64,000 nucleotides of DNA, from contig JAGLWT010000116.1 of the NCBI GenBank assembly GCA_023133295.1, positions 13,218 to 77,217 of the forward strand, in the 5' to 3' direction. The notes below the pieces were generated by a model, which saw only the letters and a list, made by a program, of their open reading frames with translations, made no database searches and was not told the DNA's origin. This DNA is from a bacterium. GTDB taxonomy: Bacteria; AUK180. This document shows positions 5,210-51,371 of the stretch, in pieces (the stretch's first letter is position 1; each line of letters starts with the position of its first letter). The position numbers and the translations under genes were made by a program.

Positions 5210-5227
5210 GTCCTTCCTCCGTTTGGA

Positions 5228-22913: not shown

Positions 22914-22924
22914 ATCAATAATCT

Positions 22925-29646: not shown

Positions 29647-29750
29647 ATTTAAATATTTAGTTTTCCATGATTCTGAACAACTCTACTCCTTCACATCGAG
29701 GAGAAGAGAAATAATTATTGTAAAGCAAAAGACTGCTTTTGCTATTTATT

Positions 29751-31412: not shown

Positions 31413-32374
31413 TCAATTCTCCGTATATGATCGGCCAGAACCCCTGCAATATATCTATTGCCTTCCGGAGAAAAGTGAATATCATCCACATAAAGGTCAT
31501 CATAAAGCAAGAGATCGGTTTTGCGCATTTCCTGTGAGATATCCACAAAATCTACTCTGCATTCCTGAAACACTTCCCTCATTACTTCCTGATATGAAAA
31601 GTCCGCTCTATTGAGTAATTGATATCTTAGCGGAGTAATTATAAATATGGGGTGGATCTTTCTCTTCTCGCAGGTCATTTTTATTCTCTCTATCTTCTTT
31701 GTCAGATCTTTGCGCAAATACGGATCATTATATTTCATGGCAGCGGAAGCGTAAAATTCTTTGCTGTTATAAGCTTTTTCATAATTTCCGGCAAAGAGGA
31801 GCTTTGCTAATGCAAATAAATATGAATACGAAAAAGGGCGCTTTGTTACTATAACCTCGGCGTCTGTGTCAAGTTCCAGAAAACCTATCCCGTTCAGATG
31901 AAATGCATAAAGTATATCATCGATAAAATACTGCCATACTACAATTTCGGGGGGATTTTTCTGGAGATTCTTCTCCAATATCACAATATTTTGATCAAGT
32001 CCATAGCCGCAAACCCCCATATTGTGAACATTGAATTCTTTCAATTCGCCTTGAAGAAACACCGGGTAGGTTTCATCGTCCTCAACTCCCAGGCCGGCAG
32101 TAATGGAATCGCCTATGCAGATAATGTTTTTTTCTGACTTCTCTATGGTATTCAAATTCCTGTACCCTGATGAATTTATTGTAAATTTCTTATTTCGCCA
32201 CATATATGACGATGATTTTCTATAACGATATCCAAGTTCACTGTCTTTTTCGAAAATTCTTCTGTCATAATCCTGTAGCTTTGATATGGGGTCCAATAGT
32301 CTTGCAAGGCCTTCAAAAAGCAGAAAAAGGATCAAAAAAAACAATAAATACTTAGACAGCCGTTTTATCAACAA
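31409..32374 (-). CDS. SGNH/GDSL-family hydrolase-like protein
   Basis: N-terminal TM. IICIGDSITAGLGV block-I motif. Later DDIHFSPEG, similar to the DxxH catalytic block. Overlaps both flanking carbamoyltransferase genes. Confidence 0.55.
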   Translation of the reverse strand: MLIKRLSKYLLFFLILFLLFEGLARLLDPISKLQDYDRRIFEKDSELGYRYRKSSSYMWRNKKFTINSSGYRNLNTIEKSEKNIICIGDSITAGLGVEDDETYPVFLQGELKEFNVHNMGVCGYGLDQNIVILEKNLQKNPPEIVVWQYFIDDILYAFHLNGIGFLELDTDAEVIVTKRPFSYSYLFALAKLLFAGNYEKAYNSKEFYASAAMKYNDPYLRKDLTKKIERIKMTCEKRKIHPIFIITPLRYQLLNRADFSYQEVMREVFQECRVDFVDISQEMRKTDLLLYDDLYVDDIHFSPEGNRYIAGVLADHIRRIE

Positions 32375-34043
32375 TTAAATAATCTCCTAATATAAGCACA
32401 TCAATATCTGTTTTCAAGAATGTCTCTATCGCCTCGGCAGGAGAGTTGACGATAGGTTCTCCCCTGATATTAAATGAGGTGTTCAATACAACCGGAACAC
32501 CTGTGATCATTTCAAATTCTCTGATAAGATCATAGTATCCCGGATTTTGCTTTCTATTTACCGTCTGAACCCTGGCCGTACCGTCAATATGCACTACCGC
32601 GGGAATATCATTTTTCTTTTCATCCAATACATCAAAAACAAAAAGCATAAATGGAGAAGAGACACACCCTTTAAAATACTCCCCTGCCTTCTCTTCGAGA
32701 ATGCTCGGCGCAAAAGGTCGAAATCCCTCGCGATGCTTTACCCTTTCATTCAGAATATCTTTCATTTCCCCTTTTCGGGGATCCGCAAGAATACTTCTAT
32801 TGCCAAGGGCGCGGGGGCCGAATTCCATCTTTCCCTGATACCAGCCGACTATCTTGCCGCGGCTTAATTCCTGAGCTGCTGCTTTTTCAATATTAGCCCG
32901 CTTACTATAGGGAAGTTTATTCTTATGGAGTTGAATCTTGATATCATCATCACTGTAGCTGGAACCAAGGTATGCATTATCCATGATATATTTCCGTTCC
33001 CGCCCCAATATTGAATGTTGAACATATAGCGCTGCTCCGAGCGCGGTTCCCGCATCATTTGCCGACGGTTGAACAAAAATATCCTCAAAGGGACCTTCCC
33101 TTTGAATGAGACCGTTTGCAACCGAGTTCAGCGCCACGCCCCCAGCAAGGCAGAGTTTTTTCTCGCCGGTCTCTTCATAGAGATTCTCGGAAAGCAAAAG
33201 CATATACTTCTCCAGTATTCTCTGAAGGGATGCTGCCATATTCTCATGGAATGTTGTTATTTCGCTTTCCGGGTCTCTTCTTGGACCGAATCGGCGGATG
33301 AACTTCTTTGAGATATCCCTTTCTACTGAATTCTGAAATTCAAAATAACTGAGGTCTATTCTCATCCTATTTTCCTTCACGGTGATCATCTCATCAAGAT
33401 CATTGAAATACTCCGGCTTTCCGTAAGAAGAAAGGCCCATTACCTTTCCATCGCCGGAATGCACCTGAAACCCCAGATATCTTACAATGGCGGAATAAAA
33501 ATAGCCTAATGAATGGGGAAATGGATTTTCGTATATTTTCTCGATACGGTTTTTCGATCCCTTTGCCAAAAGATAGGTGGATCTTTCTCCGGAACCGTCA
33601 ATTGACAATATTGCCGCGCTGTTAAAAGGTGTGGGAAAGAAAGAAGATGCCGCATGGGCAAGGTGATGTTCTACAAAATATGTCTTTTTTACTTTCAGCG
33701 GAATATATTTTCTGACATTCAGCATCTTAAAAAAATCTCCGCCATGTGTTCTACCCCAACTCAGGCTTTTTGGGAAATTCCTTATTATGGTGGGTAGTCT
33801 TCCCTGAATTCCCAGGAGAGGTTTCACATAATATGCAAGGATAATCTCCTCATCCTTTGCCAATATTCCATTTTTAAAAAGATAATCAAATATTCCATGC
33901 GGAAATTTTCCGGTGTATTTTTCTCTGTTGAAACGCTCCTCTTCGGCTGCGAAGAGGATACTGCCGCCTTCATCGATGACGGCAACAGAGCTAAGATGCC
34001 TAAAGCAATTCAATCCGATTATTTTCATCTGTAAATTATACAT
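32352..34043 (-). CDS. Carbamoyltransferase, NodU/CmcH family (paralog)
   Basis: IIGLNCFRHLSSVAVIDEGGSILFAAEEERFNREKYTGKFPH...HHLAHAASSFFPTPFNSAAILSIDGSGE. The C-terminal 170 aa are nearly identical to the first carbamoyltransferase (RALGNRSILADPRK...KHREGFRPFAPS...LNTSFNIRGEPIV). Confidence 0.85.
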   Translation of the reverse strand: MYNLQMKIIGLNCFRHLSSVAVIDEGGSILFAAEEERFNREKYTGKFPHGIFDYLFKNGILAKDEEIILAYYVKPLLGIQGRLPTIIRNFPKSLSWGRTHGGDFFKMLNVRKYIPLKVKKTYFVEHHLAHAASSFFPTPFNSAAILSIDGSGERSTYLLAKGSKNRIEKIYENPFPHSLGYFYSAIVRYLGFQVHSGDGKVMGLSSYGKPEYFNDLDEMITVKENRMRIDLSYFEFQNSVERDISKKFIRRFGPRRDPESEITTFHENMAASLQRILEKYMLLLSENLYEETGEKKLCLAGGVALNSVANGLIQREGPFEDIFVQPSANDAGTALGAALYVQHSILGRERKYIMDNAYLGSSYSDDDIKIQLHKNKLPYSKRANIEKAAAQELSRGKIVGWYQGKMEFGPRALGNRSILADPRKGEMKDILNERVKHREGFRPFAPSILEEKAGEYFKGCVSSPFMLFVFDVLDEKKNDIPAVVHIDGTARVQTVNRKQNPGYYDLIREFEMITGVPVVLNTSFNIRGEPIVNSPAEAIETFLKTDIDVLILGDYLIVDKTAV

Positions 34044-37352: not shown

Positions 37353-40253
37353 TCAGAATTCATGCTGAAGATCCGCGATCTCCATATCGCCCGAGGAATT
37401 GCCGGAAGTAAATCTCAGTAATTTGCCGTCACGGATCTTATATCTTACATAACCCACAGAGAGATCGTAGAAGTTAGTACCGGCCTTATCCTTCAGATAA
37501 CTAAAATCCTTCTGGAATTGAGCAAGTTCCTTGCCCTTGTTGAAATAATCAATATGGAAAAGCATGTCCATGGGCAATGCGAGATTCAGCATATCCTTGA
37601 GTTTGTAATTATACAGAAAGCGTGTGGGCATAAGCACCACATCGACCTTATCGAAATACTGCTTGTATGACATCAATTTATCCACTTCCCCCCTGTCCAG
37701 ATCAGCGGCTAATAAAAACTGTTTTCTTGAGATCTCAATACCCTTTTTCTTCAAGATATAATCGGCCTTAAGTACCATATTATCCTGAAAATAATCCTCT
37801 TTGCCGCTGCTTTCCGGGTATATAGCGTATATCTCAAACACATATTCACTGCTTCCCACTTTCTTACTCTCTTTCAGAATATAATCACCTGCCTTTACCA
37901 CTTCATAGGGTATTTTACTGGACAATAGGGTGTTGCTTACCTTTTGACATGTTTCATATCTGCTTTTTACCCAATAAGCCTGGCCTCTTTCAAGTAAATA
38001 CTCATTATCAGTAGATTTCAAGAAGTCTTCATATGTAGATGCGGATGCTTTTTGCACATTTGTGGGAAGATATACCTTTCCCACGGGATATTCTCTTAGT
38101 ATTGTAGTAACCGCCGAATTATTATCCTGAGAGTAATCCGTCAGGATCAGATCGTCTATGCGGTTGATACCGTAAGACATCAAAATGCTCATGACCACAC
38201 GGTCGGCCTCGTCCCATTCCCTTCTGTTATAGAGAGAATGTTTCCCCGCATTTATCAATACATTTCTCCCCGAAGGCGTTTTGATGAAAACGACATTGCC
38301 TTTGGAAAGGGAGAAGAAGGTTATGTCAACTTCATTATCCCTCTTTGTTGGTATCAGCAGAAGTATGGAGCCCAGAAGTACAATGGCGATTATGATCGCG
38401 GGCAGAAACTTAAATATACGCGCCCTCTTGTCGTGTTTCTGTTTGAATACCGTCAATTTATATTTATAGTCAAGCCATTTACTTTTGATATACGGCAGAT
38501 TGATAATGATAAGCAGCGCTATAAAATAGAATATCAGCCCGCCGAAGGTGAACTTCTTCACATATGGATATGGAAAAGTGGTCGAAAAGAAATGCGCGGA
38601 CTGTATGAAGAGCTTCAACAGCAGATAATTAGCGGCATTGATGAACAGTCCCATATAGATACCGACAACGGGTATCAGAGACAGAATTGCCGCGATCATC
38701 CCCAATTGAACATTGATACCGATGAGGGGTATGGCGATATAATTGGCGTACATACCCGCAATTGGATATCTGCCGAAATAATATGCGGAAAGCGGGATCA
38801 TCATTCCCAGCTGTATCGCGAATTGTGCCGATATAAAGGAGATCAGCCAAGGTGGCATCTTCCTGTAGGATGGAGCGGCAAGTTGCTTTTTTTCCTCAAA
38901 TTTATTGGATAAATACAAAAACACCCCGGAAGCGGCAAAAAATCCCCACAGAAATAGTGAATTAAAGAAATAACTCTTGAAGATGATGATCAGCGCGGTG
39001 AAGGAGGCGAAAACAAAGCAAGCCGCCCAAAAGGTATATCCGATCAGATACTTCTTGAAAATATCATCCAGAAACGGCGTGATAAGGACAAGAGACAGCA
39101 CCGCTCCAAACGATAGAGTAAAGGATGCCTCTCTCAATAGAAGCGGGTTCACAAATAATATCATAAGAGCGGCAACGGAAATACCCACCTCGATCGAGGT
39201 TCGCAGACCCTTGCCGGAAAGTACCCAGGCCATCAGCACGGCACTGTTCATTATTACAGCACGGAGAGTGGATGGCCGTCCGCCGGTGATTATCGCGAAG
39301 ATCACTAAAAAGAGTATTGTAATAACGGCATAAACTCTCCTCGGTACGCCTATCAATGAAAAGATCCCCACAAATAATATCATAAGGATCGTAACATGAA
39401 GCCCCGACACTGCCAGTACATGATTCACGCCCGCCCTTTTGAACTCATCCTTTATCTGATATCGGGCATCGGGCAAGAAGATCCCGTCCATGCCGTATCT
39501 CAGCCCCAGAGTAATACCGCCTAAAAATGCCGACTCCGGGTATTTCACCGTTCTTCGAATGGTCTTCAAGAACTTCTGCTTAATACCCAACGAGAAGGCT
39601 ACAAAGGGATTCTTCTTTGTCAGCTCATCAGGGGTGATGCGTGACGCATCCTTGAAATATGCTGTATAATATACTCCGGTGCTTTCCAGAAATTTTCTAT
39701 AATCAAAGCCGCCCGGATTCGTTGCTTTCTGCGGCCTCTTCAAGTCTGTCTCAAAGGTGATATAGTGGCCGTATGAGAGAAACTCCGGGTATTTGCCTTT
39801 CTTGAACGAATAATTAAGAAGGATCTTCCCCTTTTTTACTTCTTTCGAACGGGCGCCGTTGACCGAGATCTTCAGGGGCTTGATATAAACCCGCATCCTG
39901 TTCTCAAAATATTCGGGCTCTCTGTACACATATCCTTCGACCGTTGCGGATACGAGATCTTCTCCACCGGTAACGGTCAGTATATGCCCTTTTCTGTCAA
40001 TATTCAGAGCATTGTGCGTAAAGGCAAGGCCCAGTACAAATGGCAGAAGGTAAAAAGCCATCAGCATAGGTATCTTCTTGATATAACCCCAGCGCTTATA
40101 GCTATAAAAACCCACAGCTACAGCCGCGAGAAGAATCGCGGCAGAGAGGGCAAAAAAGATAAGCGGAGAGGCCAAAGGAAAGACGCCGAAACTGATGAGG
40201 ATGCCGAGGACAAAGAACAATGTAAAGAGATAGAGTTTATTTTCCCAATACAT
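37353..40253 (-). CDS. comEC: ComEC/Rec2-family DNA internalisation channel with N-terminal DUF4131-like region and a degenerate C-terminal metallo-beta-lactamase domain
   Basis: Competence domain signature AGVNHVLAVSGLHVTILMILFVGIF...RPSTLRAVIMNS. The C-terminal MBL-like fold has DDLILTDYSQDNNSAV where canonical ComEC has LVLTHxDxDHxGG, so the HxHxDH metal ligands are missing. Confidence 0.75.
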   Translation of the reverse strand: MYWENKLYLFTLFFVLGILISFGVFPLASPLIFFALSAAILLAAVAVGFYSYKRWGYIKKIPMLMAFYLLPFVLGLAFTHNALNIDRKGHILTVTGGEDLVSATVEGYVYREPEYFENRMRVYIKPLKISVNGARSKEVKKGKILLNYSFKKGKYPEFLSYGHYITFETDLKRPQKATNPGGFDYRKFLESTGVYYTAYFKDASRITPDELTKKNPFVAFSLGIKQKFLKTIRRTVKYPESAFLGGITLGLRYGMDGIFLPDARYQIKDEFKRAGVNHVLAVSGLHVTILMILFVGIFSLIGVPRRVYAVITILFLVIFAIITGGRPSTLRAVIMNSAVLMAWVLSGKGLRTSIEVGISVAALMILFVNPLLLREASFTLSFGAVLSLVLITPFLDDIFKKYLIGYTFWAACFVFASFTALIIIFKSYFFNSLFLWGFFAASGVFLYLSNKFEEKKQLAAPSYRKMPPWLISFISAQFAIQLGMMIPLSAYYFGRYPIAGMYANYIAIPLIGINVQLGMIAAILSLIPVVGIYMGLFINAANYLLLKLFIQSAHFFSTTFPYPYVKKFTFGGLIFYFIALLIIINLPYIKSKWLDYKYKLTVFKQKHDKRARIFKFLPAIIIAIVLLGSILLLIPTKRDNEVDITFFSLSKGNVVFIKTPSGRNVLINAGKHSLYNRREWDEADRVVMSILMSYGINRIDDLILTDYSQDNNSAVTTILREYPVGKVYLPTNVQKASASTYEDFLKSTDNEYLLERGQAYWVKSRYETCQKVSNTLLSSKIPYEVVKAGDYILKESKKVGSSEYVFEIYAIYPESSGKEDYFQDNMVLKADYILKKKGIEISRKQFLLAADLDRGEVDKLMSYKQYFDKVDVVLMPTRFLYNYKLKDMLNLALPMDMLFHIDYFNKGKELAQFQKDFSYLKDKAGTNFYDLSVGYVRYKIRDGKLLRFTSGNSSGDMEIADLQHEF

Positions 40254-40402
40254 TATTTTTCTTCCAAAAACCCGTAATACGATTCATTGGACCTGAGATT
40301 TCCCTCGATCGTATAATTCTTATCAAAGGCCAGAACCAGGATCGCGGCAATCGCAATGATAATTATCCCTATTAAAATAAAGGCCTTCTTTCCTTTTTTC
40401 AT
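40253..40402 (-). CDS. Small single-pass membrane protein (49 aa), not in the supplied ORF track
   Basis: The reverse complement reads MKKGKKAFILIGIIIIAIAAILVLAFDKNYTIEGNLRSNESYYGFLEEK. Its ATG overlaps the stop of the 663-aa gene as TAATG. Its TAA overlaps the ComEC ATG as TAATG. It fills the only gap in the operon exactly. Confidence 0.5.
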   Translation of the reverse strand: MKKGKKAFILIGIIIIAIAAILVLAFDKNYTIEGNLRSNESYYGFLEEK

Positions 40403-42393
40403 TAACTTCTCCAGTCAAGATAGAATTTGAAAGCCCTCTGCGGAACCGTATTATCAGCCCTTGCCGAATTATCCTGAATATAATACCTTCTTTTGTACCC
40501 TATTTTCAGCTTCAGATTCTTCCACCAGAGTTTTCTGCTGTAATCAACCGACCATTCACGGTATTCCTCAGAGGTGGATGAGTCCGACTTCCTGTAGATA
40601 TTATTATCCGTGGATTTAAACGAGAACAGGAAGTTACCCAGGGCGGGTTTCCAATTCGCCTTCAGCTGATAGGATGCATTGGCCTTTCTCTGAGGCAGAG
40701 AATGTTCCATATAGGTATTGAAGCGGTAAATGCCTGTCAGGCGCAATTTCTCGGACAAGTTGTAATTAAAAGTCACATAAGTCCTTGTGCTTTTGTCCGA
40801 TTCGGAATAATCCGTAATATATGAATCATTCAAGTTCCTTGCTACATCATTATCTTTATACCGCTGCGTCACCGCCATATCAACAAGCGGCGTTATCGGA
40901 TATTGAAATTTTATCGAGCCGTCGAAATTGGTCTGAAGAGTTGAATAATACCTCCAGATATCCGCCTTGGGAGTGATCTCCAATTTTCCCAATTTTAAAA
41001 GCGCATCGAATTTAATACCCCTTTCGTTCTGGGCGGAAAGCTCCGCAGGAGATTCATATGTGGCGAATGTATATGAATAGGGATTTTCAAATTCCCTGTG
41101 GAAATCCCTGTAAATAAAATTGATCCGCGCGGTTTTCTTTTTCATGGTCATCTTCAATAAGAAGCCGTGAGCGCCTGATTCCAATTGCCCGAATTCCGCC
41201 TGAATAGCCGACTTTTTAAAAGGAGTCCACCGCATATTCAATCCCCATACCCATGCATCGAACATGCCTTCAGAGTAATTATTCGGCTTGTAGAGGTCAG
41301 AGGCATAGATCTCCTTATTGTGGTAAACGGTCATTCCGATAAAATTGTCCTCTCCGCCGATGCGCATATGCCCGCCGAAAATGGTCTTGTTAACATAATT
41401 CGGAATGGAAAGAGCGATCGTATCTTCGTCAAAATCGCTCTCTGAATACGCCGATTCATCCGCGCTGAAATCGGCCGAACTGACCAGAAGATGTGAATAC
41501 TGATAGAGCTTGTCCTGTATCTGTGACGCGAAGATGAATATCTCCGCCGGTCCCAGCACCGTTCGCATACCGGCACCAAGGAGGTTCAGATTGAAATCGG
41601 AAGTAACATCACTGGAACGGTCGCCCTTGAAGCCGTACAGATTCTTGTTATCGGATTCATTAAAGACCACGCCAAGACCGAAGCCCGCCATATAATTTCC
41701 CGTGATCAATTGGAAGTTCTTTGTATTCCAGTTTATAAATACCTTAGGCAGAGGCCATACCGTTTTCTTCGGGTCAACGATAACTTCGCCCGGCTGAAGG
41801 AAGATCTCGCCGTTTTCATCATAGGTAACAGGCCCGTCATATTCCTCAAAGCTGTATGTGGCGTATCTGCGTTCCTGAAGAATTCCTATATCCAATACCT
41901 TTCCGAGACGGAAGCGGTATTTGAACTGTACATAAGGCGTCTCTTCTGATTTGGTCGTGGAAGAAACCTCGTCCCTGAATTTAAAGTTGAGGTCGGTTTT
42001 CCTTTTCAATACCTTCTTACCCTTGACCTTCTTTATCTTTACCGGGGGAATGATGCGCATAAATCCCTCAACAAAACTGAAGTCTGTACGCCCGAGGATC
42101 CTTTTGAGGGGCTTGTCATCTTTAAATGGCCGGTTCTTGATGATCTCATCAGCGATCTCAAGGGTTACCTTGGGAAGCCGCAGCAGCTCACTCTTAGGAG
42201 CGCTATTGACCTCTATAGGATTTGAGTAAAGTTCCCAAAGCATAATATACTGCTCTTGATCGATATCTCCGGACTCGTACAGATCGGCGATCTCGTCTTC
42301 CGTAGATATGGGTATCGAAAGATCATAATCCTGAGCAAATGCAAAAGAGGCCAAAAACAAAACGATCAGAAATAGTATTCTACCTTTCATCAT
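40402..42393 (-). CDS. Secreted or outer-membrane protein with an N-terminal ComEA-like helix-hairpin-helix motif followed by a large beta-rich (putative beta-barrel) domain
   Basis: Signal peptide MMKGRILFLIVLFLASFAFA. Then IEVNSAPKSELLRLPKVTLEIADEIIKNRPF, a ComEA-type HhH (NxNxA..eLxxLPGIg.xxAxxIixxR). Then about 550 aa of alternating beta-strand-like sequence rich in Tyr/Phe/Asn. Its start overlaps the stop of the upstream gene as ATGA. Confidence 0.5.
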   Translation of the reverse strand: MMKGRILFLIVLFLASFAFAQDYDLSIPISTEDEIADLYESGDIDQEQYIMLWELYSNPIEVNSAPKSELLRLPKVTLEIADEIIKNRPFKDDKPLKRILGRTDFSFVEGFMRIIPPVKIKKVKGKKVLKRKTDLNFKFRDEVSSTTKSEETPYVQFKYRFRLGKVLDIGILQERRYATYSFEEYDGPVTYDENGEIFLQPGEVIVDPKKTVWPLPKVFINWNTKNFQLITGNYMAGFGLGVVFNESDNKNLYGFKGDRSSDVTSDFNLNLLGAGMRTVLGPAEIFIFASQIQDKLYQYSHLLVSSADFSADESAYSESDFDEDTIALSIPNYVNKTIFGGHMRIGGEDNFIGMTVYHNKEIYASDLYKPNNYSEGMFDAWVWGLNMRWTPFKKSAIQAEFGQLESGAHGFLLKMTMKKKTARINFIYRDFHREFENPYSYTFATYESPAELSAQNERGIKFDALLKLGKLEITPKADIWRYYSTLQTNFDGSIKFQYPITPLVDMAVTQRYKDNDVARNLNDSYITDYSESDKSTRTYVTFNYNLSEKLRLTGIYRFNTYMEHSLPQRKANASYQLKANWKPALGNFLFSFKSTDNNIYRKSDSSTSEEYREWSVDYSRKLWWKNLKLKIGYKRRYYIQDNSARADNTVPQRAFKFYLDWRS

Positions 42394-43868
42394 TCACCTC
42401 CCTGGCCATTATCAACAGCGGGATCGTATTCTCCCGCTTTTATCATATTTCTCATATTCTCAAAGGTCTTGGGACCTATTCTGGGAACATTCATAATATC
42501 CTCTATGTTCTTAAATCCGCCGTTTTGCTTCCTGTAGGAAAGAATGTTCGCCGCTGTCTTCACTCCTACGCGCGGAAGTTTCTGCAGCTCCGCACTGTCC
42601 GCGGAGTTGATATCTATTAACGGTCCGCTGTAAGAGGTTTTCGAGGAGGTGGAAGTGGCCGAGGAACTGCGTGACGGCACAATTTGAGTCGATGACTCAT
42701 ATTTACTGCCAACGGTAATATGGGACCGTATTTTTTCAACGGTCTTAACGCCTATTCTAGAGACATTCTGCAGGTCTTCCACTCTTCTGAACGGCCCGTT
42801 CACCTTCCGGTATTCCACTATACGCTCTGCTGTCTTGCTGCCTATGCCCGGGATCGCGGAAAGCTCCTCCGCATTTGCAAGATTAATATTTATCCTGCCG
42901 TTGATCACCGAGAGTTCGGGTTTGGATTCTTTGTTTCCGAGTCCAAAGGCAAAGGTATGTGTGGCGCCCAGCTCCGGATGTACCTTCAAAGCATATGAAA
43001 CTGCCATTCCGCCGCCGTAAATTCCGAGGCCGGCAGAATAGGAAAAACGCTCCGAGTGAAGATATTCAATGCCGCCAAAGAGAGCAAAGTTATCTGTCAT
43101 ATCGTACTTGATACCAAAATGATATTCGGAGTAAAGGTCCCGTTTAGCCGCGAAATTTTCCAGATATGCGTCATAGTCGGCAAAATCACCGACCGCTTCT
43201 TCTATCTCCGCTTCCTCGGCATCGGTATAACTCCCGAGTCCGTAAGTATGTTTCAGAAACGATGCGGGAATATTCGCGATAAGGTTGAAATAGATATTTA
43301 ATTGGGTAAAAGGGGTATATGAAACCCCTATGCCGACATCCCTCGCCATGTATTCCTGGCCGATATACGGTGCTGAAACATTTCTGAATCTTGCTCCGAA
43401 ATAAAGATCGTTATTTACAAAGAGCACCATTCCCATATCCAGGGCAAGTGTGGATGCCGAACCGATCTCGTCGATAACGACACTCATATACTTCCCCTTG
43501 AAACCAAGCGCGAAATTGGAGCCCACATTGAATGCGCCGGCAAATTGTATTTGCTGTTCCGCATACAGCCATGAGCCGAATTTTACAAGGTTCAGGCCCA
43601 TTGTCATCGAGCCGAAGCGCTTGATATAATTTGCTGAGGTGTTTGCCAGTTCATCCATGCCGTATAGCCGGGATGTGGTAAAATTCAAATGGACATTCTC
43701 CAGATAGGCCAGCATGGCGGGATTATTGTATATCGCCTCAGGTCCCATAAGCACCAGATTGGCTCCACCGGTAGCAAGGTTGAGGGGCATATTCCCCTCA
43801 AATTCAAAGGCAGTCCATCCATTGATGGCTAGAATGATCGAGAAAACTACTATTATTATTTTTTTCAT
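42390..43868 (-). CDS. Fusion protein: FadL/PorV-like outer-membrane beta-barrel (NPA motif) plus two C-terminal ComEA-type HhH DNA-binding domains
   Basis: Signal peptide. GGANLVLMGPEAIYNNPAMLAYLEN N-terminal hatch-like motif, paralogous to the proteins at 13832..14782 and 46947..47831. About 320 aa of barrel-like sequence. Then ININLANAEELSAIPGIGSKTAERIVEYRKVNGPFRRVEDLQNVSRIGVKTVEKI and IDINSADSAELQKLPRVGVKTAANILSYRKQNGGFKNIEDIMNVPRIGPKTFENM, two full ComEA HhH domains separated by a Ser-rich linker. Confidence 0.6.
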   Translation of the reverse strand: MKKIIIVVFSIILAINGWTAFEFEGNMPLNLATGGANLVLMGPEAIYNNPAMLAYLENVHLNFTTSRLYGMDELANTSANYIKRFGSMTMGLNLVKFGSWLYAEQQIQFAGAFNVGSNFALGFKGKYMSVVIDEIGSASTLALDMGMVLFVNNDLYFGARFRNVSAPYIGQEYMARDVGIGVSYTPFTQLNIYFNLIANIPASFLKHTYGLGSYTDAEEAEIEEAVGDFADYDAYLENFAAKRDLYSEYHFGIKYDMTDNFALFGGIEYLHSERFSYSAGLGIYGGGMAVSYALKVHPELGATHTFAFGLGNKESKPELSVINGRININLANAEELSAIPGIGSKTAERIVEYRKVNGPFRRVEDLQNVSRIGVKTVEKIRSHITVGSKYESSTQIVPSRSSSATSTSSKTSYSGPLIDINSADSAELQKLPRVGVKTAANILSYRKQNGGFKNIEDIMNVPRIGPKTFENMRNMIKAGEYDPAVDNGQGGE

Positions 43869-43877: not shown

Positions 43878-46800
43878 CTACATCCTTTTCCCAATGGCAA
43901 CGACTTCTTTCTTATAAATAGATTTCGTTTCATTTCTCAATTCGATATATAGAATATACACACCCATTGGCAGCGGCCGGTTGCGATTATCATCGCCGAT
44001 CCATTTCACAGAGAAAGGCCCCGGCGGAAGAACTGTCTTTTCCGATAATGTCTTTACTTCTCTTCCGGCAATGTCATATACACGCAGCGTGAGCACTCCC
44101 TCGGAAACAACATGCAGGGAGATCTCGGTATATAATCTATTCGGATCGCTGCCGTCATTAACAAAGCTCCTCGGGGAGATCTCGATCTGCGTAATATTGC
44201 CGGCGGGTATCTCCGTTTCATCGCAAGGCCTTCCCATCGTGGGGTTTTCCGTGATCGTCCAATCGGCAAGCGTGTTCGTATCCGTAAATTCCGCATCACG
44301 CGTTATAGATGATTCTTCCTCCACATTATTTGATCTGATGGCATTGGTAGCGGCATAGATCCAATCGTAAATATATCCGCTGTCCGGCTGCTCGCCAAGA
44401 GGATAATCGGGATACTTCGCCATATTGGGGAAAAATTTATAGATCTCTCCGTCCCAATGATATGCTCCTAATTTGGGATCGGATGAAAAATATACCTCAT
44501 AGAAATCGCTGTATTCAATATAAGAGATATCTATCAATTCTGAAACGACCCATGTCGACGCGGCGGGAACCACCTGTCCGTCGGCTATAAGATCGCCGTT
44601 CTCGTCAAAGGGGAATATTTGTTCTTCTGAATTTCTTTCAGCCCATACAACGGCATCTTTGATATTTCCGGAAAAATCCCGGAACTCAAGGTTCTCATCC
44701 GTGCTGGAAAGCGAGAGTTTCGAAAGATAGATCGTTAATATTCCGTCACTTCCCGCGGTAAGTTCGCTGTCATTTTCATTTCCTACGGTGATAATGACAA
44801 ATTCACCGGTTTTCAAGGTCGTTCCGGGCTGAATTATCGCAATTACGCTGTCCGTCAGCATGAAACAACCACCGACATCAACACCTGCTCCGGAATTGCC
44901 GTCATCCTTGCAATAAAGCTCTATCCAATCCGGAAATCCTGAGGGTGAGTAAAAATAAACCTCTGAGATCACGATATCCGTTTCGGCGGGCAATGTATCG
45001 ATCGGATGGCCGTAACCCGGCGTAACGACCAGGGTATTCTTCCAGTCAACTTTATCATTGGTATCCGTATTGTAATAATCTCTGACAATAGAGCCCTTTG
45101 AAAAATCCGATGAAACACAGTCGATCTCTTCGCCGTCAACGGGAGAGCCGTAGCCTATGTTCCATTGGCCGACAGCAAAAGCTTCCTCAAAGTCATCATC
45201 GGACAGGGAGCCGCCCTGATCCGCCCAGCAGACAAGGTCTATCAATTCGCCATTCGGCGTAAATATGCCCATTTGCTCGTCCGAATCGGTTATCCCCGTA
45301 TCGGCGGTCGTCACAAAATACGATGCCTTGGTCAGGGGAAGTTTCCAGTCATCCGCATTATCATATATCAATAATCCGTAATCTCCTGTGCGGAAGATAC
45401 CGGATGAAAGTTTTTTATCGGCTTTTTCGTTCAGGTCCGTAATGGAGGCGCGGGTGCCGTAAGTGGATATCGAATCAAGATCATCAAGATAAAATCCTTT
45501 AAGGTCGATACCGTTTCCATTATTACCGTCATCGATCATGTAAAACTCCACAAAATCCTCGCCATATGTCCCGATAGAATCTACTTCGGTAATTAGGATC
45601 ACAGGGTCCTTTACCGTTATGGACTCTAAATAGTCCGAAACAGAATTTCCGGTGTCCGAGATCGCATTTGCTTTTTGATCCGCTCCCGTGACCCAGAAAC
45701 CTATGATCGAGAGATTGGGTATATCCACGGTAGAACCCTTGGTAAGGTCAGCTCCGCCTTTATAAACCAGGGTATTTCCCCATATAATGCCGTCTTCGCT
45801 GCCGTCAGCGCCGGAGCTGTAGGCGAGTGTTACCGTGCCGGAATCTACGAATACTCCAGTAGAGGTCTTGATCTCATACCATAAACTCAAGGTAGATGTA
45901 TCTTCAATACCGCCCTCTTCTGAAAGTATCAGCTCAAACGATGTGGCTGAAAGAGAAACACGGGGGAAATCTCCCGAAGGAGACATGGAAACAGGAGAGG
46001 GGCCCGTAATATCTATCGGCAAGACCGTAAGGTCCGCGGAAACAATACCATCCACTCCTGTATTTTCCGGTGTTATTTCAATAACTCCCGAAGACAGGCA
46101 TCCGCCGAAATCAACCGTACCCTCACCATTGATCAAGGTCAGCGCGATCGTGTCAGTGCCTCCCGAAAAATGTCCGGTTCCGGCAGGAGAAGCGGATATC
46201 GTAATATCTAGTGTCGGAGACGAGGTATAGACGGAGTAGTTCTCATCAAGAAGCTTAACCGTGACCGTCGTGGTCTCCGGCGTACCCCCGGTAACTTCGA
46301 TCCTTGTGGGGTATACAAAAGCACGGAGATTGATCGAGGACTCGGTAGGCCCGACCGAATTGGGGTGGCGCGGCGTGCCGTAGATAGGGTTGCCCAGATA
46401 ATCGGTGCCGTATATGGTAATAAGATCATTATCCGCCCAATTGGAAGAATCGTTGCCGTCCTTTCCGAGAATGATCTTTTCCATGGAAACGCCGCCCGAC
46501 TGGCCGGCGAACCATCCATCTGAGCAGTCGACTTGATCAATGAGATTAGCGGAGTTATCATACAGGCGGAGGTTTTCTCCGTCATTTGAAAGTTTGCTGT
46601 AGCCAAGGTCTTCAGAATCGCTTTCGATATCGGCGATCGCCTGTTTTACCGGCTCGGTACTGCTTCTGTATTCTATCAGATAATATGCTCCCGATCTGAT
46701 CGTGGTTGTGTTAGCAGTGGTAAGGTCAACAATTATTCCACCGCTATCCCAAATATACCATCCGGTAAGATCGATATCGGAACCCGTGGGATTGTAAAGC

Positions 46801-46940
46801 TCGATCCATTCGTACCCGCTCTGGGCAATGGTCCCGCTCCATGAAAGCTCTGAAATAACAACATCACCGCTTGAAGCGGAATGTATCGCAAGGGGCAGTA
46901 TCGAAAGGATGATCAACAATGCTAATATTTTTTTCATCAT
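43878..46940 (-). CDS. Large secreted multi-domain protein (1020 aa) with at least three lamin-tail-domain (LTD) repeats and a T9SS C-terminal sorting domain
   Basis: Signal peptide. LTD signatures: GDVVISELSWSG...GYEWIELYNPTGSDIDLTGWYIWD; PVILITEVDSIGTYGEDFVEFYMIDDGNNGNGIDLKGFYLDD; DIVISEVYFYSPSGFPDWIELYCKDDGNSGAGVDVGGCFML. C-terminus LTLRVYDIAGREVKTL...GVYILYIEL...KKEVVAIGKRM matches a Por_Secre_tail. Confidence 0.65.
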   Translation of the reverse strand: MMKKILALLIILSILPLAIHSASSGDVVISELSWSGTIAQSGYEWIELYNPTGSDIDLTGWYIWDSGGIIVDLTTANTTTIRSGAYYLIEYRSSTEPVKQAIADIESDSEDLGYSKLSNDGENLRLYDNSANLIDQVDCSDGWFAGQSGGVSMEKIILGKDGNDSSNWADNDLITIYGTDYLGNPIYGTPRHPNSVGPTESSINLRAFVYPTRIEVTGGTPETTTVTVKLLDENYSVYTSSPTLDITISASPAGTGHFSGGTDTIALTLINGEGTVDFGGCLSSGVIEITPENTGVDGIVSADLTVLPIDITGPSPVSMSPSGDFPRVSLSATSFELILSEEGGIEDTSTLSLWYEIKTSTGVFVDSGTVTLAYSSGADGSEDGIIWGNTLVYKGGADLTKGSTVDIPNLSIIGFWVTGADQKANAISDTGNSVSDYLESITVKDPVILITEVDSIGTYGEDFVEFYMIDDGNNGNGIDLKGFYLDDLDSISTYGTRASITDLNEKADKKLSSGIFRTGDYGLLIYDNADDWKLPLTKASYFVTTADTGITDSDEQMGIFTPNGELIDLVCWADQGGSLSDDDFEEAFAVGQWNIGYGSPVDGEEIDCVSSDFSKGSIVRDYYNTDTNDKVDWKNTLVVTPGYGHPIDTLPAETDIVISEVYFYSPSGFPDWIELYCKDDGNSGAGVDVGGCFMLTDSVIAIIQPGTTLKTGEFVIITVGNENDSELTAGSDGILTIYLSKLSLSSTDENLEFRDFSGNIKDAVVWAERNSEEQIFPFDENGDLIADGQVVPAASTWVVSELIDISYIEYSDFYEVYFSSDPKLGAYHWDGEIYKFFPNMAKYPDYPLGEQPDSGYIYDWIYAATNAIRSNNVEEESSITRDAEFTDTNTLADWTITENPTMGRPCDETEIPAGNITQIEISPRSFVNDGSDPNRLYTEISLHVVSEGVLTLRVYDIAGREVKTLSEKTVLPPGPFSVKWIGDDNRNRPLPMGVYILYIELRNETKSIYKKEVVAIGKRM

Positions 46941-46946: not shown

Positions 46947-47831
46947 CTACCACCGATACCCAAGGCCGGCTGATACCGTTCCCGGTAAAAGCGATCCGAA
47001 CCCGTATGAGACATCGATCTCCAGCTTGTTCAATCCGATCTGAACACCGAAGAGAATATTTCTTGTGGTATCATTCAATGCATCACTCGCGCCGAATCTC
47101 AATTTTATCCATTTAGTAATATTAAAAGCTAAGCCCGAATTCAAGATCATTGAAGATTCCCTGATAACCGCCTGTGTCAAGAGGGTCAGCGCCATGCCTC
47201 CGTCACCCATTTGCCGTTTATATCGAAAGCCGATACCTCCGGATATAGAAGGGAACGCGCCTTCCTGTTCAAATTCCAGCTTCGTACCCCAATTATTTAC
47301 AAAAAGTCCTATCAGAAGCTTTTTCATCTTAAAGGCAAGGCCGAGGTCAATTAAAAAAGAGTCCGCTGTATATGTATCGATACGGCTGAAAAGGTATTTT
47401 ATATTTACACCGGCATATGTATTCTGGCCGATGGCATCGCCGAAAGAAAGCACAAGTCCAAGGTCGGAAGAATGGAATTGCCCGGTAACCGTGCCTATCT
47501 CATCCCGGGAATCCTGATATCCCCAATTGCCGTAAATGGCAGAGATCCCGACATTGCCGAAATTCTCAAGATACACCGCCGTTGATATTAAAGAGACATC
47601 CATCTCCTCATAATATTTTCTGTAGCTGGTTTTAAAATAATTCCAGCCCGAGATAGGCATCAATGCCGGATTGACCAGTATGGAACCAAAATCATCAATA
47701 TCAACGCCGAGAACGGACCCGCTGCCGCGTGCTCCCGAAGTCGGGTCAATATTAAAAACATTGGAAGAGCCCATTGCGGCAATGCAAACCGAGATCAAGA
47801 GAACCATTATGAATATTACAGATCTCTTCAT
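46947..47831 (-). CDS. Outer-membrane beta-barrel protein, FadL/PorV-like (NPA motif). Putative partner of the adjacent LTD cargo proteins
   Basis: Signal peptide MKRSVIFIMVLLISVCIAA. GSILVNPALMPISG NPA motif. Beta-strand alternation. C-terminal ...GLGYRW. Paralog of the proteins at 13832..14782 and the N-terminal domain at 42390..43868. Confidence 0.5.
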   Translation of the reverse strand: MKRSVIFIMVLLISVCIAAMGSSNVFNIDPTSGARGSGSVLGVDIDDFGSILVNPALMPISGWNYFKTSYRKYYEEMDVSLISTAVYLENFGNVGISAIYGNWGYQDSRDEIGTVTGQFHSSDLGLVLSFGDAIGQNTYAGVNIKYLFSRIDTYTADSFLIDLGLAFKMKKLLIGLFVNNWGTKLEFEQEGAFPSISGGIGFRYKRQMGDGGMALTLLTQAVIRESSMILNSGLAFNITKWIKLRFGASDALNDTTRNILFGVQIGLNKLEIDVSYGFGSLLPGTVSAGLGYRW

Positions 47832-47834: not shown

Positions 47835-50800
47835 CTACCTCACCACCGAGAACTTAACCATCGCGGTGAAGCTATCCGCTTTTACCAGGCCGAAATATAT
47901 CCCCGCGGGGATCTTTCTCCCGTATCTGTCCTTCAAATCCCAACTTATCTGATGGAATCCCGCAGAAAGCACAGCATCGTGTATCTCAATCACCTTTCTC
48001 GCATCCAATGTCAAGATCGTCAGCGTAACATTGGATTCTTCCAGTATGTTTATCTCAAATGTTATCGTGTCGACATCCGGAGTTGCCGGATTCGGATATG
48101 GAGTATATATATTATTCCCGTCAAATGAGGTGTCAATGAAATACTCCAGCAGGTCAACACATGTGAATTCAACTATATGCTTTCCCGCCTCGGAGGCCAG
48201 GGTCAATGTGAATGACGCCGAGCCGTCGGTGCCGGTCCGGGCGGAGGATGGGGCGATAGACGCACCCAAAGGAGTGTCGATAAGAGAGGTGGCGACATCC
48301 GCACCATACAATCCCAATCCGGTATCAGAAGTGATATAGACCAAGATATCCCGATCCTTCCCGGGAGCGGTATGCGGATCTTCCGCGGGGTCAAATGTCA
48401 TTACCGCGGGAGAAAGGACATCAAATTCAGGCGAATTCAGTTCAACAAGGTCTGTACCGTTCTCTAAAATGCTTATCCCGAATTCGTATATTCCTTCCGC
48501 ATCAGGGAAATCATAACCATTGAAATCTATGCTCACCGAGCTTGCCGCGGTTATCCCGGGAATGGTAATGGTGGAGCCGGAAACCGTATAGGCGACCGTA
48601 TTGGAAGCATCGACGGTTACCGTCAGATTTGCCAATGTGGGTTGAGTAAAACTTGAATGAACAACAATATACAGATCATCGTCTCCATCCAGCTTGGGAT
48701 AACCTACCGTATAATCAATACCCAGATCTCCATTGCCGCCTTGGCAAAGCGGGACATTGGGAGTTTTTGAAATGCCATAAGAGCCGGAAACCGCAGAATC
48801 CACATTGCCGAAAGGCGAGGAATTGCCTGATTCATCAAGGGCCTTCACCGAAATATAATATGTTGTGCCGGCAGGCAGCATCGTCAGTGCATGCTCCTCT
48901 GTCTGAGTCGGCAGAAGCGGTGTTATCCCCGAAGTATCGTATTTATCCGCAGCGATAAAGTCAGCGTCATCAGAGATCGGGGCGGTGGAATAAGCGATCT
49001 CATAACTATCACATTGAGATACGCCAAGTCCGTTCTCGCCCACTGCGGTAAAGTTTATTCTGATACCGCCGATCGTAGGATGGGAATATGCGCTAAGGTC
49101 ATTGATCACCGATGGCGATCGATTATCGATGGTATTGAAAGAGAAGAGATAATCTCCACCGGGAGCGCCGTCATTATCTCCGTCAAGGCCGTTGCCTGAT
49201 ATATCCATCGCTCTAGAGTAAACGGTAATATCATATGAGGTGTCTTCTGTAAGCGGAGCCGTAAGGGTCATCGTTAATGTCTCATTGCCGGCATCCCAGG
49301 AAAGCGTATATGCTACAGCCGGCACTATCTCAAGCGATAAATCCACCGATACGGTATTCATTTCCTCTGAGAATGTGATGATAATATCGGTCACTGTATC
49401 TATATTCACTCCCGAATCGATCGGAGATGTGTATAGAACGGTCGGTGAGGCATAATCTCCACAGCTTGTACTGTAATTTGAGTTTTCAGCACAGGGTGTG
49501 GCATTAAGCGGATTATTGTCGGCATCAAGGCCGTTTATTGTAATTCCGTCATTGGAACCCCAGTTACCGGCGACCGAACCGCCGACACATGGATCTATTC
49601 TCTCCATTGTGAAATAATTAGGGGATCCCGTACCTGCGTACCAACCGGCACTACAATCGACCAGATCAACTGTCACATTGGATGAATTCTTTAAAGTTAT
49701 CGTCACACCGGTGTTGCTCAAACTGAGAGATGTATCCACAAGTCCGCCCGCAACATCATTCACGGTATCCTCGGAATTTTCAATAAGGTAATATCCGAAA
49801 GCGGGAATAGTTCCCGAAAGCGTTTCCGTCGAGAACCCGACTCCCTGAACATACCAGCCGGTAAGGTCGATCCCCTCACCTGTCGGATTGTACAGCTCTA
49901 TCCACTCATCGGAAGATGAGTGCAATGTACCGCCGAAGGCGACTTCATTTACAACAACCTTTCCGGTCATTGACTCATATACTTCGATCAAGGGAGATGC
50001 TCCGATCGCCGAAAGCGTCCCTGTGCCTTTTGATCTTACGGTATAGGTATATGTTCCGAGCGTGTCGCACATAGCACCGGGCGAACCCGAAGACATATCT
50101 CCATAAATGAATACTAATGTATTTCCGGTATCGAGCGTAGTAATATCCGCTATTATCTCCCAACCAGTGGTCTCATTTCCCGTAATGGAAGCGATCGATG
50201 CCGCGGCATCGCCGGAAAGGGAAAGATATCCTTCCGATGCAGGAGCTCCGTCCTGCGGCTGTGACCAATTCGCGGGAATATATAGCGCGACCTGCCCGCC
50301 TGCCATATCAAGCGATGCGGTATAGATCACATTTACGCTCTGATGATTATCCTTGAGAATATTAGAGGGATATGCGACCGCCGTACCGGTACCGTCACCG
50401 TATTGCGATGTCTGAAAACTGAATGTATATGTATCTCCGCCCGAATCATCCACTGAAGCGGAGTCAGCCAGCGTATTGCCCGCTACATCCGCAACTATGG
50501 TCTTATCGATCTCAATATAATATGTCGCCCCGAATGACAGTGTATTATGTGTGATCGTAAGTGTTTGTGTAGTATTTGACCATGCATATCCTTCTCCTCC
50601 GGGTGAGGGTGATATAATTATCCCCAAAGTGGAGGTATCCGCCATTTCCTCGTCAAAATCTATTGTGATATCGGCCAAGGGGTTGACCGCCGACGCGCCG
50701 TTAACCGGGGCCGTCGCGGTTATGGTCGGAGCTTGCGTATCCGCAGCTGCACCGCCGCAGGTCGAAACCATACAGGAATTGTCCTGACCTGGAGTACCGT

Positions 50801-51371
50801 GAATGGCATTTGAACCAGAATCCGCTCCATTTATGGTAACTCCATCATTTGTAGCCCAATTGGAACACACATTTCCGGGCGAGCACGGGTCTATCCTTTC
50901 CATCGTATATTCTCCGGTAGTATTTCCTGCACACCATGCCCCGCTATTGTCATCAGCAACATCGATCACATTGCCGGTAGCGTCCTGGCCATCGTATAAG
51001 ATAATACTGTCTCCGCCGGCGTTCATTCCTATCGTAAGGTCCCAGATCTCAATTGTAGCTCCCGAAGTGAATACTCCGGCATCATTTGCGTATATCAGAT
51101 AGCCATTGGCGGGAATGATAGTGGTATTGTTTCCGTCGGCTGCTGAAATATTCAGGACAACCCCGGTATCAGCGCCATAGATCGACCAAGCGGCTATATC
51201 GATCGGTGCATCTGTGGTATTATAGAACTCTATCCATTCATCACTTGCCGAATCCGTGGTTCCGTCATAGGCGATCTCATTGATGACAACATCACCGGGA
51301 GTCGCCGCTTCCGCGATCTGCATAGATATCAAAAGCAAGGCGGCAATAAATATGATCGTTATTTTCTTCAT
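47835..51371 (-). CDS. Large secreted protein (1178 aa) with two lamin-tail-domain (LTD) modules, Ig-like/beta-rich repeats and a T9SS C-terminal sorting domain
   Basis: Signal peptide MKKITIIFIAALLLISMQIAEA. LTD signatures: GDVVINEIAYDGTTDSASDEWIEFYNTTDAPIDIAAWSIYG and GKVVVNEVAFGGTLHSSSDEWIELYNPTGEGIDLTGWYVQG. C-terminus VTLTILTLDARKVIEIH...ISWDL...GIYFGLVKAD...KFSVVR matches a Por_Secre_tail. Confidence 0.65.
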   Translation of the reverse strand: MKKITIIFIAALLLISMQIAEAATPGDVVINEIAYDGTTDSASDEWIEFYNTTDAPIDIAAWSIYGADTGVVLNISAADGNNTTIIPANGYLIYANDAGVFTSGATIEIWDLTIGMNAGGDSIILYDGQDATGNVIDVADDNSGAWCAGNTTGEYTMERIDPCSPGNVCSNWATNDGVTINGADSGSNAIHGTPGQDNSCMVSTCGGAAADTQAPTITATAPVNGASAVNPLADITIDFDEEMADTSTLGIIISPSPGGEGYAWSNTTQTLTITHNTLSFGATYYIEIDKTIVADVAGNTLADSASVDDSGGDTYTFSFQTSQYGDGTGTAVAYPSNILKDNHQSVNVIYTASLDMAGGQVALYIPANWSQPQDGAPASEGYLSLSGDAAASIASITGNETTGWEIIADITTLDTGNTLVFIYGDMSSGSPGAMCDTLGTYTYTVRSKGTGTLSAIGASPLIEVYESMTGKVVVNEVAFGGTLHSSSDEWIELYNPTGEGIDLTGWYVQGVGFSTETLSGTIPAFGYYLIENSEDTVNDVAGGLVDTSLSLSNTGVTITLKNSSNVTVDLVDCSAGWYAGTGSPNYFTMERIDPCVGGSVAGNWGSNDGITINGLDADNNPLNATPCAENSNYSTSCGDYASPTVLYTSPIDSGVNIDTVTDIIITFSEEMNTVSVDLSLEIVPAVAYTLSWDAGNETLTMTLTAPLTEDTSYDITVYSRAMDISGNGLDGDNDGAPGGDYLFSFNTIDNRSPSVINDLSAYSHPTIGGIRINFTAVGENGLGVSQCDSYEIAYSTAPISDDADFIAADKYDTSGITPLLPTQTEEHALTMLPAGTTYYISVKALDESGNSSPFGNVDSAVSGSYGISKTPNVPLCQGGNGDLGIDYTVGYPKLDGDDDLYIVVHSSFTQPTLANLTVTVDASNTVAYTVSGSTITIPGITAASSVSIDFNGYDFPDAEGIYEFGISILENGTDLVELNSPEFDVLSPAVMTFDPAEDPHTAPGKDRDILVYITSDTGLGLYGADVATSLIDTPLGASIAPSSARTGTDGSASFTLTLASEAGKHIVEFTCVDLLEYFIDTSFDGNNIYTPYPNPATPDVDTITFEINILEESNVTLTILTLDARKVIEIHDAVLSAGFHQISWDLKDRYGRKIPAGIYFGLVKADSFTAMVKFSVVR

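Follow-up and report, generated by a model that had tools for sequence, protein, structure and literature searches.

Natural transformation is least understood at the step where DNA crosses the outer membrane, and besides the pilus with its secretin and the ComB system of Helicobacter, we know of only one other candidate route, the recently reported DdbC/Riemerella system, which resembles a TonB-dependent transporter. The question is raised afresh by a gene in a 64,000-nucleotide (nt) stretch of DNA from a bacterium of the GTDB lineage AUK180 (assembly GCA_023133295.1, contig JAGLWT010000116.1, positions 13,218 to 77,217 of the forward strand; hereafter the window, with positions counted from its first letter). 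The gene shares an operon with comEC, and a sequence-only reading of this DNA had proposed that its product, with a helix-hairpin-helix (HhH) domain and a beta-rich remainder, could be a DNA conduit. Here we ask what this protein, which we call HhH-barrel, is likely to be, which genes accompany it and what it might carry. Its predicted structure and genetic surroundings make it, in our view, a strong but unproven candidate for the gate of a pilus-independent DNA-uptake route.

A predicted outer-membrane barrel with a ComEA-type domain

The gene, taken from the list of open reading frames (ORFs), encodes 663 amino acids (aa) identical to the NCBI hypothetical protein KAU32_08765, and its product divides into the following parts.

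40402..42393, minus strand: HhH-barrel gene, 663 aa
42334..42393, minus strand: signal peptide, aa 1-20, MMKGRILFLIVLFLASFAFA followed by QD; the protein's only hydrophobic stretch, with an A-F-A cleavage site read by eye
42223..42330, minus strand: acidic two-helix segment, aa 22-57, net charge -11, conserved in family alignments
42058..42222, minus strand: ComEA-type (HhH)2 domain, aa 58-112, from Pfam HHH_3 and ComEA-structure profile matches and similarity to a neighbouring gene product
42004..42057, minus strand: basic linker, aa 113-130, RIIPPVKIKKVKGKKVLK, net +8 by charge count
40405..42003, minus strand: predicted 24-stranded outer-membrane beta-barrel, aa 131-663, from the AlphaFold model and a strand count

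AlphaFold gave a poor model from a 5-sequence alignment (predicted local distance difference test score, pLDDT, 51), and the 46-sequence family alignment gave one with a pLDDT of 84.7 and a predicted TM-score (pTM) of 0.84. The secondary structure of the latter contains 24 long antiparallel strands, joined by 2-5 residues on the side of the termini and by 4-38 residues on the opposite side, a strand-turn-loop pattern that, in the model, is standard outer-membrane-protein topology. Because the short turns share a side with the termini, the HhH domain would lie on the periplasmic side or in the lumen. The sequence-only reading had described an amphipathic, beta-rich C-terminal region, possibly a large barrel, and this description is borne out: the ~530 residues are all-beta, with a hydrophobic/polar alternation of the strands conserved across the 46 sequences, and structure prediction with strand counting yields a 24-stranded membrane barrel rather than a soluble sandwich or propeller. 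The N-terminal signal-like segment, likewise recognized in that reading, is the sole hydrophobic stretch of membrane-helix length in the protein. An N-terminal hydrophobic segment, an even strand number, short turns and longer outer loops are thus all present, as in outer-membrane barrels. The C-terminal end reads ...FKFYLDWRS in the window protein, with Ser as its final residue; it is W-R-F in two of four close relatives, W-R-G and W-R-I in the others, and W-R-F in most of the wider-family sequences listed. Taken together, the signal peptide is predicted to export HhH-barrel, the barrel is predicted to be monomeric and 24-stranded, and the protein as a whole is well predicted to be an outer-membrane barrel with a ComEA-type domain at its periplasmic end.

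The window protein can be aligned with its family from end to end, through acidic helices, (HhH)2 domain and barrel. Two long loops carry the motifs GNYMAGFGLGVVFNES...GFKGD (aa 232-258) and FENPYSY (aa 435-441), which in the family read G[SNT][YF]x[AVI]GFG...D and [FW][DE]NP[HY]; residues G232, F238, G239, G254, D258, N437 and P438 are invariant or >90% conserved across the 46-sequence alignment. When strand residues were assigned to the lumen or the lipid face by a crude even/odd rule, the putative lumen-facing positions of the window protein held 34 K+R versus 16 D+E, and the same columns were net positive in 44 of the 46 family members (mean +7.6), in proteins that as a whole average -25.

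No Pfam or NCBIfam model covers the barrel region and a barrel-only profile search matched no PDB sequence, which points to a large outer-membrane barrel of no described family. Its best fold matches are the 24-stranded ushers FimD and PapC, followed by MtrB and TonB-dependent transporters; in Foldseek the ushers rank first (E 4e-10), but with TM-scores of 0.32-0.45 and 7-10% identity.

What, then, is attached to the barrel? Pfam HHH_3 (PF12836) matches the window protein at aa 58-101 (E 9e-5, model positions 4-51 of 65) with 22.9 bits against a gathering score of 27 bits, and it is detected in 45 of 46 family members scanned, with a best E of 1.9e-16. The family profile matches solved ComEA structures (8dss, 1.9e-14; 2duy, 9.4e-11) across the whole two-motif domain, and the HhH region of the window protein matches the second ComEA domain of the neighbouring 492-aa gene (E 7e-6). 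The model places helices at aa 32-40 and 46-57 of the acidic segment and five helices across aa 46-111, four of them inside the HhH domain (67-70, 78-86, 94-100 and 102-111), as expected for two HhH motifs. The sequence-only reading had seen a single ComEA-like HhH here; the sequence that it quoted is present and matches HHH_3, but since the family profile aligns with ComEA structures over two motifs, it belongs to a complete (HhH)2 domain of aa ~58-112. The first hairpin of ComEA has the sequence LPGIG; it is LPG.T in most family members and LPKVT in the window protein. G101 of the second motif is conserved in the family. GspK and PsbU models also match family HhH domains, weakly. In the basic linker that leads to the barrel, block-mean pLDDT is 83 (residues 111-120) and 68 (residues 121-130), with isolated beta-bridges at 112-113, 123 and 126, features by which the linker is probably packed against something in the model.

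An operon with ComEA and ComEC

Which genes surround HhH-barrel? Seven genes, from 51371 down to 37353, lie on one strand with intergenic gaps of -4 to +9 nt, and the six around HhH-barrel are these.

47835..51371, minus strand: surface protein with lamin-tail-domain (LTD) and Big_5 domains, 1178 aa, with a weak match to a type IX secretion system (T9SS) C-terminal sorting domain
46947..47831, minus strand: small outer-membrane barrel of the PorQ/PorV family, 294 aa (NCBIfam)
43878..46940, minus strand: LTD surface protein, 1020 aa, with a FlgD_ig-like C-terminal domain (Pfam)
42390..43868, minus strand: 492-aa fusion of a PorV/PorQ-like small barrel (aa ~1-315) with two ComEA HHH_3 domains, at aa 324-386 and ~418-487
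40253..40402, minus strand: single-pass membrane ORF, 49 aa, between the barrel gene and comEC (ORF list)
37353..40253, minus strand: ComEC, 966 aa, with DUF4131/OB fold, Competence domain and C-terminal domain (Pfam)

The HhH-barrel start overlaps the stop of the 492-aa gene as ATGA, with a Shine-Dalgarno-like motif GGAGGTGA just 5' of it, and the HhH-barrel stop overlaps the start of the 49-aa ORF as TAATG, both as the sequence-only reading had noted; a TAATG overlap likewise joins the 49-aa ORF to comEC. From these overlaps that reading had called the products stoichiometrically coupled. The overlapping codons are real, but they suggest translational coupling only, and its phrase 'directly upstream of ComEC' holds for the operon but not for adjacency, the 49-aa ORF, which it had itself mentioned, lying in between. 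That ORF has no family match. Promoter and terminator scans gave results no better than shuffles. The window is chromosomal, containing gap-pgk-tpi, valS, argS and murJ.

The 492-aa protein matches Pfam HHH_3 (1.4e-45) and TIGR00426. Its N-terminal ~315 residues are homologous to the 273-aa partner of a Cytophagales family member (E 5e-15), a protein that itself matches NCBIfam PorV_fam at 5.5e-13, under the cut-off, and a ~270-aa PorV/PorQ-like protein precedes distant Cytophagales members with the same 4-nt overlap. By this homology and the shared overlap, small barrel and HhH-barrel form an older two-gene module. The fusion would be, in effect, an outer-membrane-tethered ComEA. Close paralogy between its N-terminus and the 294-aa PorQ-like gene was also considered, but the two are only marginally similar (E 0.04) and the idea was dropped.

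A ComEA tethered to a PorV-like barrel next door suggests that anchoring is a theme in this lineage, and this brings forward a sober alternative: HhH-barrel could be an outer-membrane anchor or scaffold, a closed or plugged barrel that merely holds a ComEA-like domain. DNA would then enter otherwise, for example by a type IV pilus (T4P) and secretin, be retained near the outer membrane by HhH-barrel and the barrel-ComEA fusion, and be passed on to ComEC. The long conserved loops and the ~110-aa N-terminal domain could fill the lumen, and a secretin may be encoded beyond the 64-kb window, there being none inside it. A 24-stranded barrel is, however, far oversized for anchoring, which the partner manages with ~300 aa, and the net-basic barrel wall is conserved. 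We regard both halves of this proposal, the plugged anchor and the retention step, as unlikely.

ComEC matches Pfam Competence (1.8e-38), DUF4131 (1.8e-23) and TIGR00361 (8.7e-47, under its cut-off). An HxHxD(H) metal-binding motif was sought throughout the window ComEC and was not found. Its C-terminal domain (aa ~640-966; 37353-38336, minus strand) has 3 His in the last 326 residues, with LTDYSQDNNS at the position of the motif, and HxHxD is also lacking in the ComEC of three clade relatives checked (L001, L003 and L014). The metallo-beta-lactamase-type competence nuclease site of the window-clade ComEC thus appears degenerate in sequence. The window operon encodes no nuclease.

The upstream genes encode surface and envelope proteins. 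The 1020-aa protein matches Pfam LTD (1.2e-22) and, weakly, FlgD_ig (2.6e-4); the 1178-aa protein matches Pfam LTD (6e-31), Big_5 (1e-24) and TIGR04183 Por_Secre_tail (4e-4, 20.3 bits against a cut-off of 23 bits). The 294-aa barrel between them matches T9SS_PorQ (2.3e-23) and PorV_fam (1.2e-21), both under cut-off. Matches to T9SS-type sorting domains are weak in both LTD proteins, and all fall under curated cut-offs; if they are real signals, they argue against HhH-barrel as the exporter of the LTD proteins. Downstream of comEC, the 841-aa membrane protein and GT2 gene were considered as members of the system, because at L017, a distant member of the family, a 795-aa protein and a GT2 come after the barrel. 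The 841-aa and 795-aa proteins are not homologous (E 1.4), and both genes were set aside.

Is this arrangement conserved? In the window's clade the gene order is LTD, PorQ-like, LTD, PorV-like-barrel-ComEA, HhH-barrel, 48-49-aa transmembrane ORF, ComEC, and it is kept wherever contigs reach, in four relatives at 46-50% identity and in others at ~31%, one of the latter labelled Candidatus Mcinerneyibacteriota. Every clade locus with enough flank has the barrel-ComEA fusion, HhH-barrel, the 48-49-aa ORF (a 48-aa gene at the same position in 4 of 4 relatives' loci with tabulated genes) and ComEC. LTD proteins lie upstream wherever the contig extends far enough, and the 1020-aa LTD gene is among those conserved upstream of the HhH-barrel gene. 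The sequence-only reading had looked to linkage of the homologues with HhH domains and comEC; the HhH domain is kept in 45 of 46 members and comEC is adjacent in 9 of 10 non-redundant clade loci (the tenth contig ends at the gene), but this second link is found in none of the wider family. As for provenance, one locus (L008, JAIVYW010000117.1) is 99% identical to the window barrel gene and carries the metagenome-assembled genome (MAG) label Candidatus Atribacteria, and a 98% match to the window comes from a MAG labelled 'bacterium isolate RS_10_39', probably a binning or labelling inconsistency.

The wider family and its neighbours

How far does the barrel extend beyond this clade? Word-indexed searches with the single protein, the 46-sequence alignment and the barrel-only alignment returned almost exclusively the four close relatives, and the breadth of the family was therefore assessed with an exhaustive profile search of representative sequences and a metagenome scan. 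The former gave 1335 matches, 258 of them below 1e-10; many are proteins of 650-870 aa matched end to end, and the remainder are ComEA-like multi-HhH proteins. The few members with a known taxon come from Myxococcota, a Pseudomonadota MAG, Cyclobacteriaceae and Fulvivirga lutimaris (Cytophagales). In the metagenome scan, for which a broad-subfamily alignment was used, 175 relatives were confirmed and 80 loci obtained.

For 86 same-strand upstream neighbours, the Pfam matches included LTD (24), SNase (16), PLDc_2 (5), HEAT_2 (3) and ThiS (2); among 50 downstream neighbours LTD was the sole recurrent family (4) and ComEC was absent. Using custom-built neighbour profiles, spot-checked against Pfam and NCBIfam, we examined the non-redundant loci of the wider family whose upstream flank reaches 3.5 kb or more, 34 in all. 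An LTD protein and a nuclease occur together on the same strand in 25 of them (SNase in 22, PLD in 3), a PorV-like partner in 3 of the 34 and ComEC in none. Clustering of the 25 loci at 50% identity gives 8 groups, with a median of 43% identity between pairs. The LTD-nuclease association is broad. Lipoboxes are present on the nucleases and on most of the LTD proteins. On these counts and the clade operon, the HhH-barrel family is well predicted to be genetically tied almost exclusively to DNA-handling envelope proteins.

Some of these loci have a fuller layout. One (L066:3922-10148) encodes, in order, an LTDx1 lipoprotein, a 415-aa SNase lipoprotein, an LTDx3 lipoprotein, a 161-aa SNase lipoprotein and HhH-barrel. 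The five-gene locus recurs in high-GC metagenomic contigs (L057, L065, L076, L077, L083, L090 and others), with SNase lipoproteins of ~400 and ~160 aa and a second LTD lipoprotein of LTDx3-5. In Myxococcota (L018) and related loci the layout varies, the nuclease lipoprotein upstream being of the PLD type and the LTD protein lying downstream. A separate subfamily (L017 and L020-L024) comprises HhH-barrels without LTD or nuclease neighbours, followed by unannotated proteins of 370-800 aa. L017, the sole locus of this subfamily checked against Pfam, has upstream a HEAT-repeat protein of at least 1327 aa, running to the contig end, and a ~76-aa ThiS-like protein; L021, L023 and L024 have similarly large upstream ORFs.

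Lipoprotein nucleases beside the wider-family barrels suggest scavenging, and there HhH-barrel probably imports DNA or its fragments for that purpose rather than for ComEC-dependent import. That surface nucleases and LTD lipoproteins, and not ComEA or ComEC, accompany the barrel in the wider family also fits transport of what they produce better than retention in the periplasm, a further point against the anchor proposed above.

The same neighbours could, on the other hand, be cargo. HhH-barrel might be an export or display platform that translocates or anchors LTD proteins and nucleases in the manner of an usher, two-partner secretion or Slam, its HhH serving as a periplasmic docking module. 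Its commonest neighbours are lipoproteins that need a surface location to meet extracellular DNA, its top structural matches, FimD and PapC, are protein-secreting 24-stranded barrels, and HhH-like folds that do not bind DNA exist, a point to which the weak GspK and PsbU matches also speak. Yet the usher similarity is generic, with no match to the Usher model and neither plug nor terminal domains; the HhH domain is specifically ComEA-like by profile; and the weak T9SS sorting matches of the window LTD proteins, together with their PorQ-like neighbour, suggest that these have an export route of their own. Export would also leave the ComEA/ComEC link in the window clade unexplained, and we consider it improbable.

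Nor need the cargo be incoming DNA, for a basic lumen suits any polyanion. HhH-barrel could be a channel for nucleotides, polyphosphate or an acidic polysaccharide, or release DNA into a biofilm whose matrix the LTD proteins and nucleases remodel. Glycosyltransferase and membrane-protein genes do lie downstream of comEC in the window, and LTD-bearing extracellular nucleases function in biofilm DNA turnover, as does ExeM, an extracellular nuclease with an LTD domain (PMC6085458). These downstream glycosylation genes are, however, not conserved with the HhH-barrel family, whose sole recurrent partners are DNA-related (ComEA, ComEC, SNase, PLD nuclease and LTD), and ComEC is an importer. We hold such a channel to be very improbable.

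A possible outer-membrane route for DNA

Given the structure predicted for HhH-barrel and the company that it keeps, we rate the locus as an outer-membrane system for taking up or utilising DNA, with a new barrel family at its core. A role as DNA conduit is the best-supported reading, which genomic context and predicted structure together carry slightly past the halfway mark, and it is with the same guarded preference that we take HhH-barrel to be the outer-membrane component of a pilus-independent DNA-uptake route.

On such a route, LTD proteins would hold extracellular DNA at the cell surface and a DNA end would pass into the wide basic barrel, to be captured at the periplasmic mouth by the HhH domain of the barrel itself. 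Next to bind the DNA would be the two ComEA domains that the neighbouring fusion tethers to the outer membrane, and binding by HhH and ComEA would rectify its diffusion like a ratchet, as has been proposed for ComEA in Vibrio cholerae (PMC3879209). In the window clade ComEC would then receive the DNA and import it across the inner membrane; the barrels of the wider family would work with LTD lipoproteins and SNase or PLD lipoprotein nucleases. A T4P-independent outer-membrane route for DNA, made up of a barrel, a surface DNA binder and nucleases, has a precedent in Bacteroidota (PMC8459023, PMC12478041).

Several observations weigh against this interpretation. The linkage to ComEC is confined to the window clade, with comEC beside 0 of 83 wider-family loci, and the LTD-nuclease counts are not phylogenetically independent. 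The HHH_3 score of the window protein is under the gathering threshold and its first hairpin is degenerate (LPKVT rather than LPGIG). The outer loops carry a net acidic charge (-27), an odd property for a surface that faces DNA, and no TonB box or energy source has been identified for HhH-barrel. Pilus genes and a secretin, absent from the window ORFs scanned, may be encoded elsewhere in the genome. In the model, the N-terminal domain or the conserved loops at aa 179-216, 238-270 and 432-456 may occupy the lumen, whose basic residues may instead have their partners in the acidic N-terminal helices or in acidic loops. The main uncertainty is whether the predicted lumen is open or can be gated.

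More tentatively, with belief that falls somewhat short of an even balance, the family may represent a new class of DNA translocon without pilus, secretin or TonB: a monomeric 24-stranded basic pore with a built-in and a partner-tethered ComEA ratchet, distributed over several diderm phyla, used for scavenging or wired to ComEC, its acidic helices possibly a DNA-mimicking gate. If the conduit reading is true, lineages without recognisable competence pili would join those with a known route for horizontal gene transfer and for the turnover of environmental DNA, a natural monomeric DNA pore would be at hand, and a concrete cell-surface role would be given to LTD domains, which in bacteria have, to our knowledge, long been without a function. 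The family reaches several phyla and has culturable members among the Cytophagales (Fulvivirga lutimaris), which makes the hypothesis directly testable.

Other features of the window

Apart from this operon, the window has a low-GC island at ~20000-30000 (27-31% G+C versus 39-48% elsewhere) with genes for a PMT_2-like glycosyltransferase, for a methyltransferase and for several proteins without a family match; it is probably a surface-glycan cluster gained by horizontal transfer. Downstream of the comEC, membrane-protein and GT2 genes, two paralogous carbamoyltransferase genes (Carbam_trans_N/C, NodU/CmcH type; 29751-31412 and 32352-34043, minus strand) flank a GDSL lipase-like gene, and two adjacent bactofilin genes (4667-5719, minus strand) lie beside a TPR protein.

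Comparison with known systems

With which known systems might HhH-barrel be compared? The nearest relation of its N-terminal domain is ComEA, a small soluble or single-transmembrane protein. Residues 58-112 are of the ComEA (HhH)2 type by profile and similar to the ComEA domain next door, and the domain is predicted to be periplasmic and is genetically tied to ComEC. Unlike ComEA, it is fused to a ~530-aa outer-membrane barrel, behind a conserved acidic two-helix segment, and in the window protein its G-h-G hairpin is degenerate (LPKVT) and its Pfam score lies under the gathering threshold.

The role proposed for the barrel, to let DNA through the outer membrane ahead of ComEA and ComEC, is that of the PilQ secretin of T4P. 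Secretins form multimeric rings, have secretin and N domains and work with a retractile pilus, whereas HhH-barrel is predicted to be a monomeric barrel and has no secretin-domain match in Pfam or NCBIfam. The FimD/PapC ushers offer the closest solved fold, at the low TM-scores (0.32-0.45) and identities (7-10%) already given; HhH-barrel does not match Usher (PF00577) and lacks the usher plug as well as the N- and C-terminal domains of ushers, and its neighbours, the ComEA, ComEC and LTD genes, form an unrelated context. It likewise has neither the model match (PF11854) nor the adjacent multihaem cytochrome that mark MtrB/PioB. The SusC/SusD loci are similar in that a barrel stands beside cognate surface lipoproteins that bind and cut a polymer, as do the LTD and SNase/PLD lipoproteins of the wider family, but HhH-barrel belongs to a different barrel family, without a TonB plug, and its presumed substrate is DNA. 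Full-text literature searches aimed at an HhH-fused outer-membrane barrel returned no paper describing one, which is not proof of novelty.

There remains the Ddb system. The Ddb locus is required for DNA utilisation in Bacteroides, and the DdbCD homologues RA0C_RS04915/04920 are needed for pilus-independent natural transformation in Riemerella anatipestifer; DdbC (RA0C_RS04915) is like a TonB-dependent transporter, DdbD is a surface protein (DUF5689), and secreted nucleases accompany them (PMC12478041, PMC8459023). HhH-barrel differs in having 24 strands where TonB-dependent transporters have 22, an HhH domain instead of a plug, and LTD proteins as partners where DdbC has a DUF5689 protein. 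Nor is there an indication of TonB dependence, and the window protein has no Plug (PF07715), TonB_dep_Rec (PF00593) or CarboxypepD_reg match. The logic is nevertheless alike: both systems combine an outer-membrane barrel with a surface DNA binder and with secreted or lipoprotein nucleases, and both show a link to ComEC-dependent transformation in one lineage and DNA scavenging in others. The DdbCD/Riemerella system is the closest functional analogue, non-homologous, of HhH-barrel.

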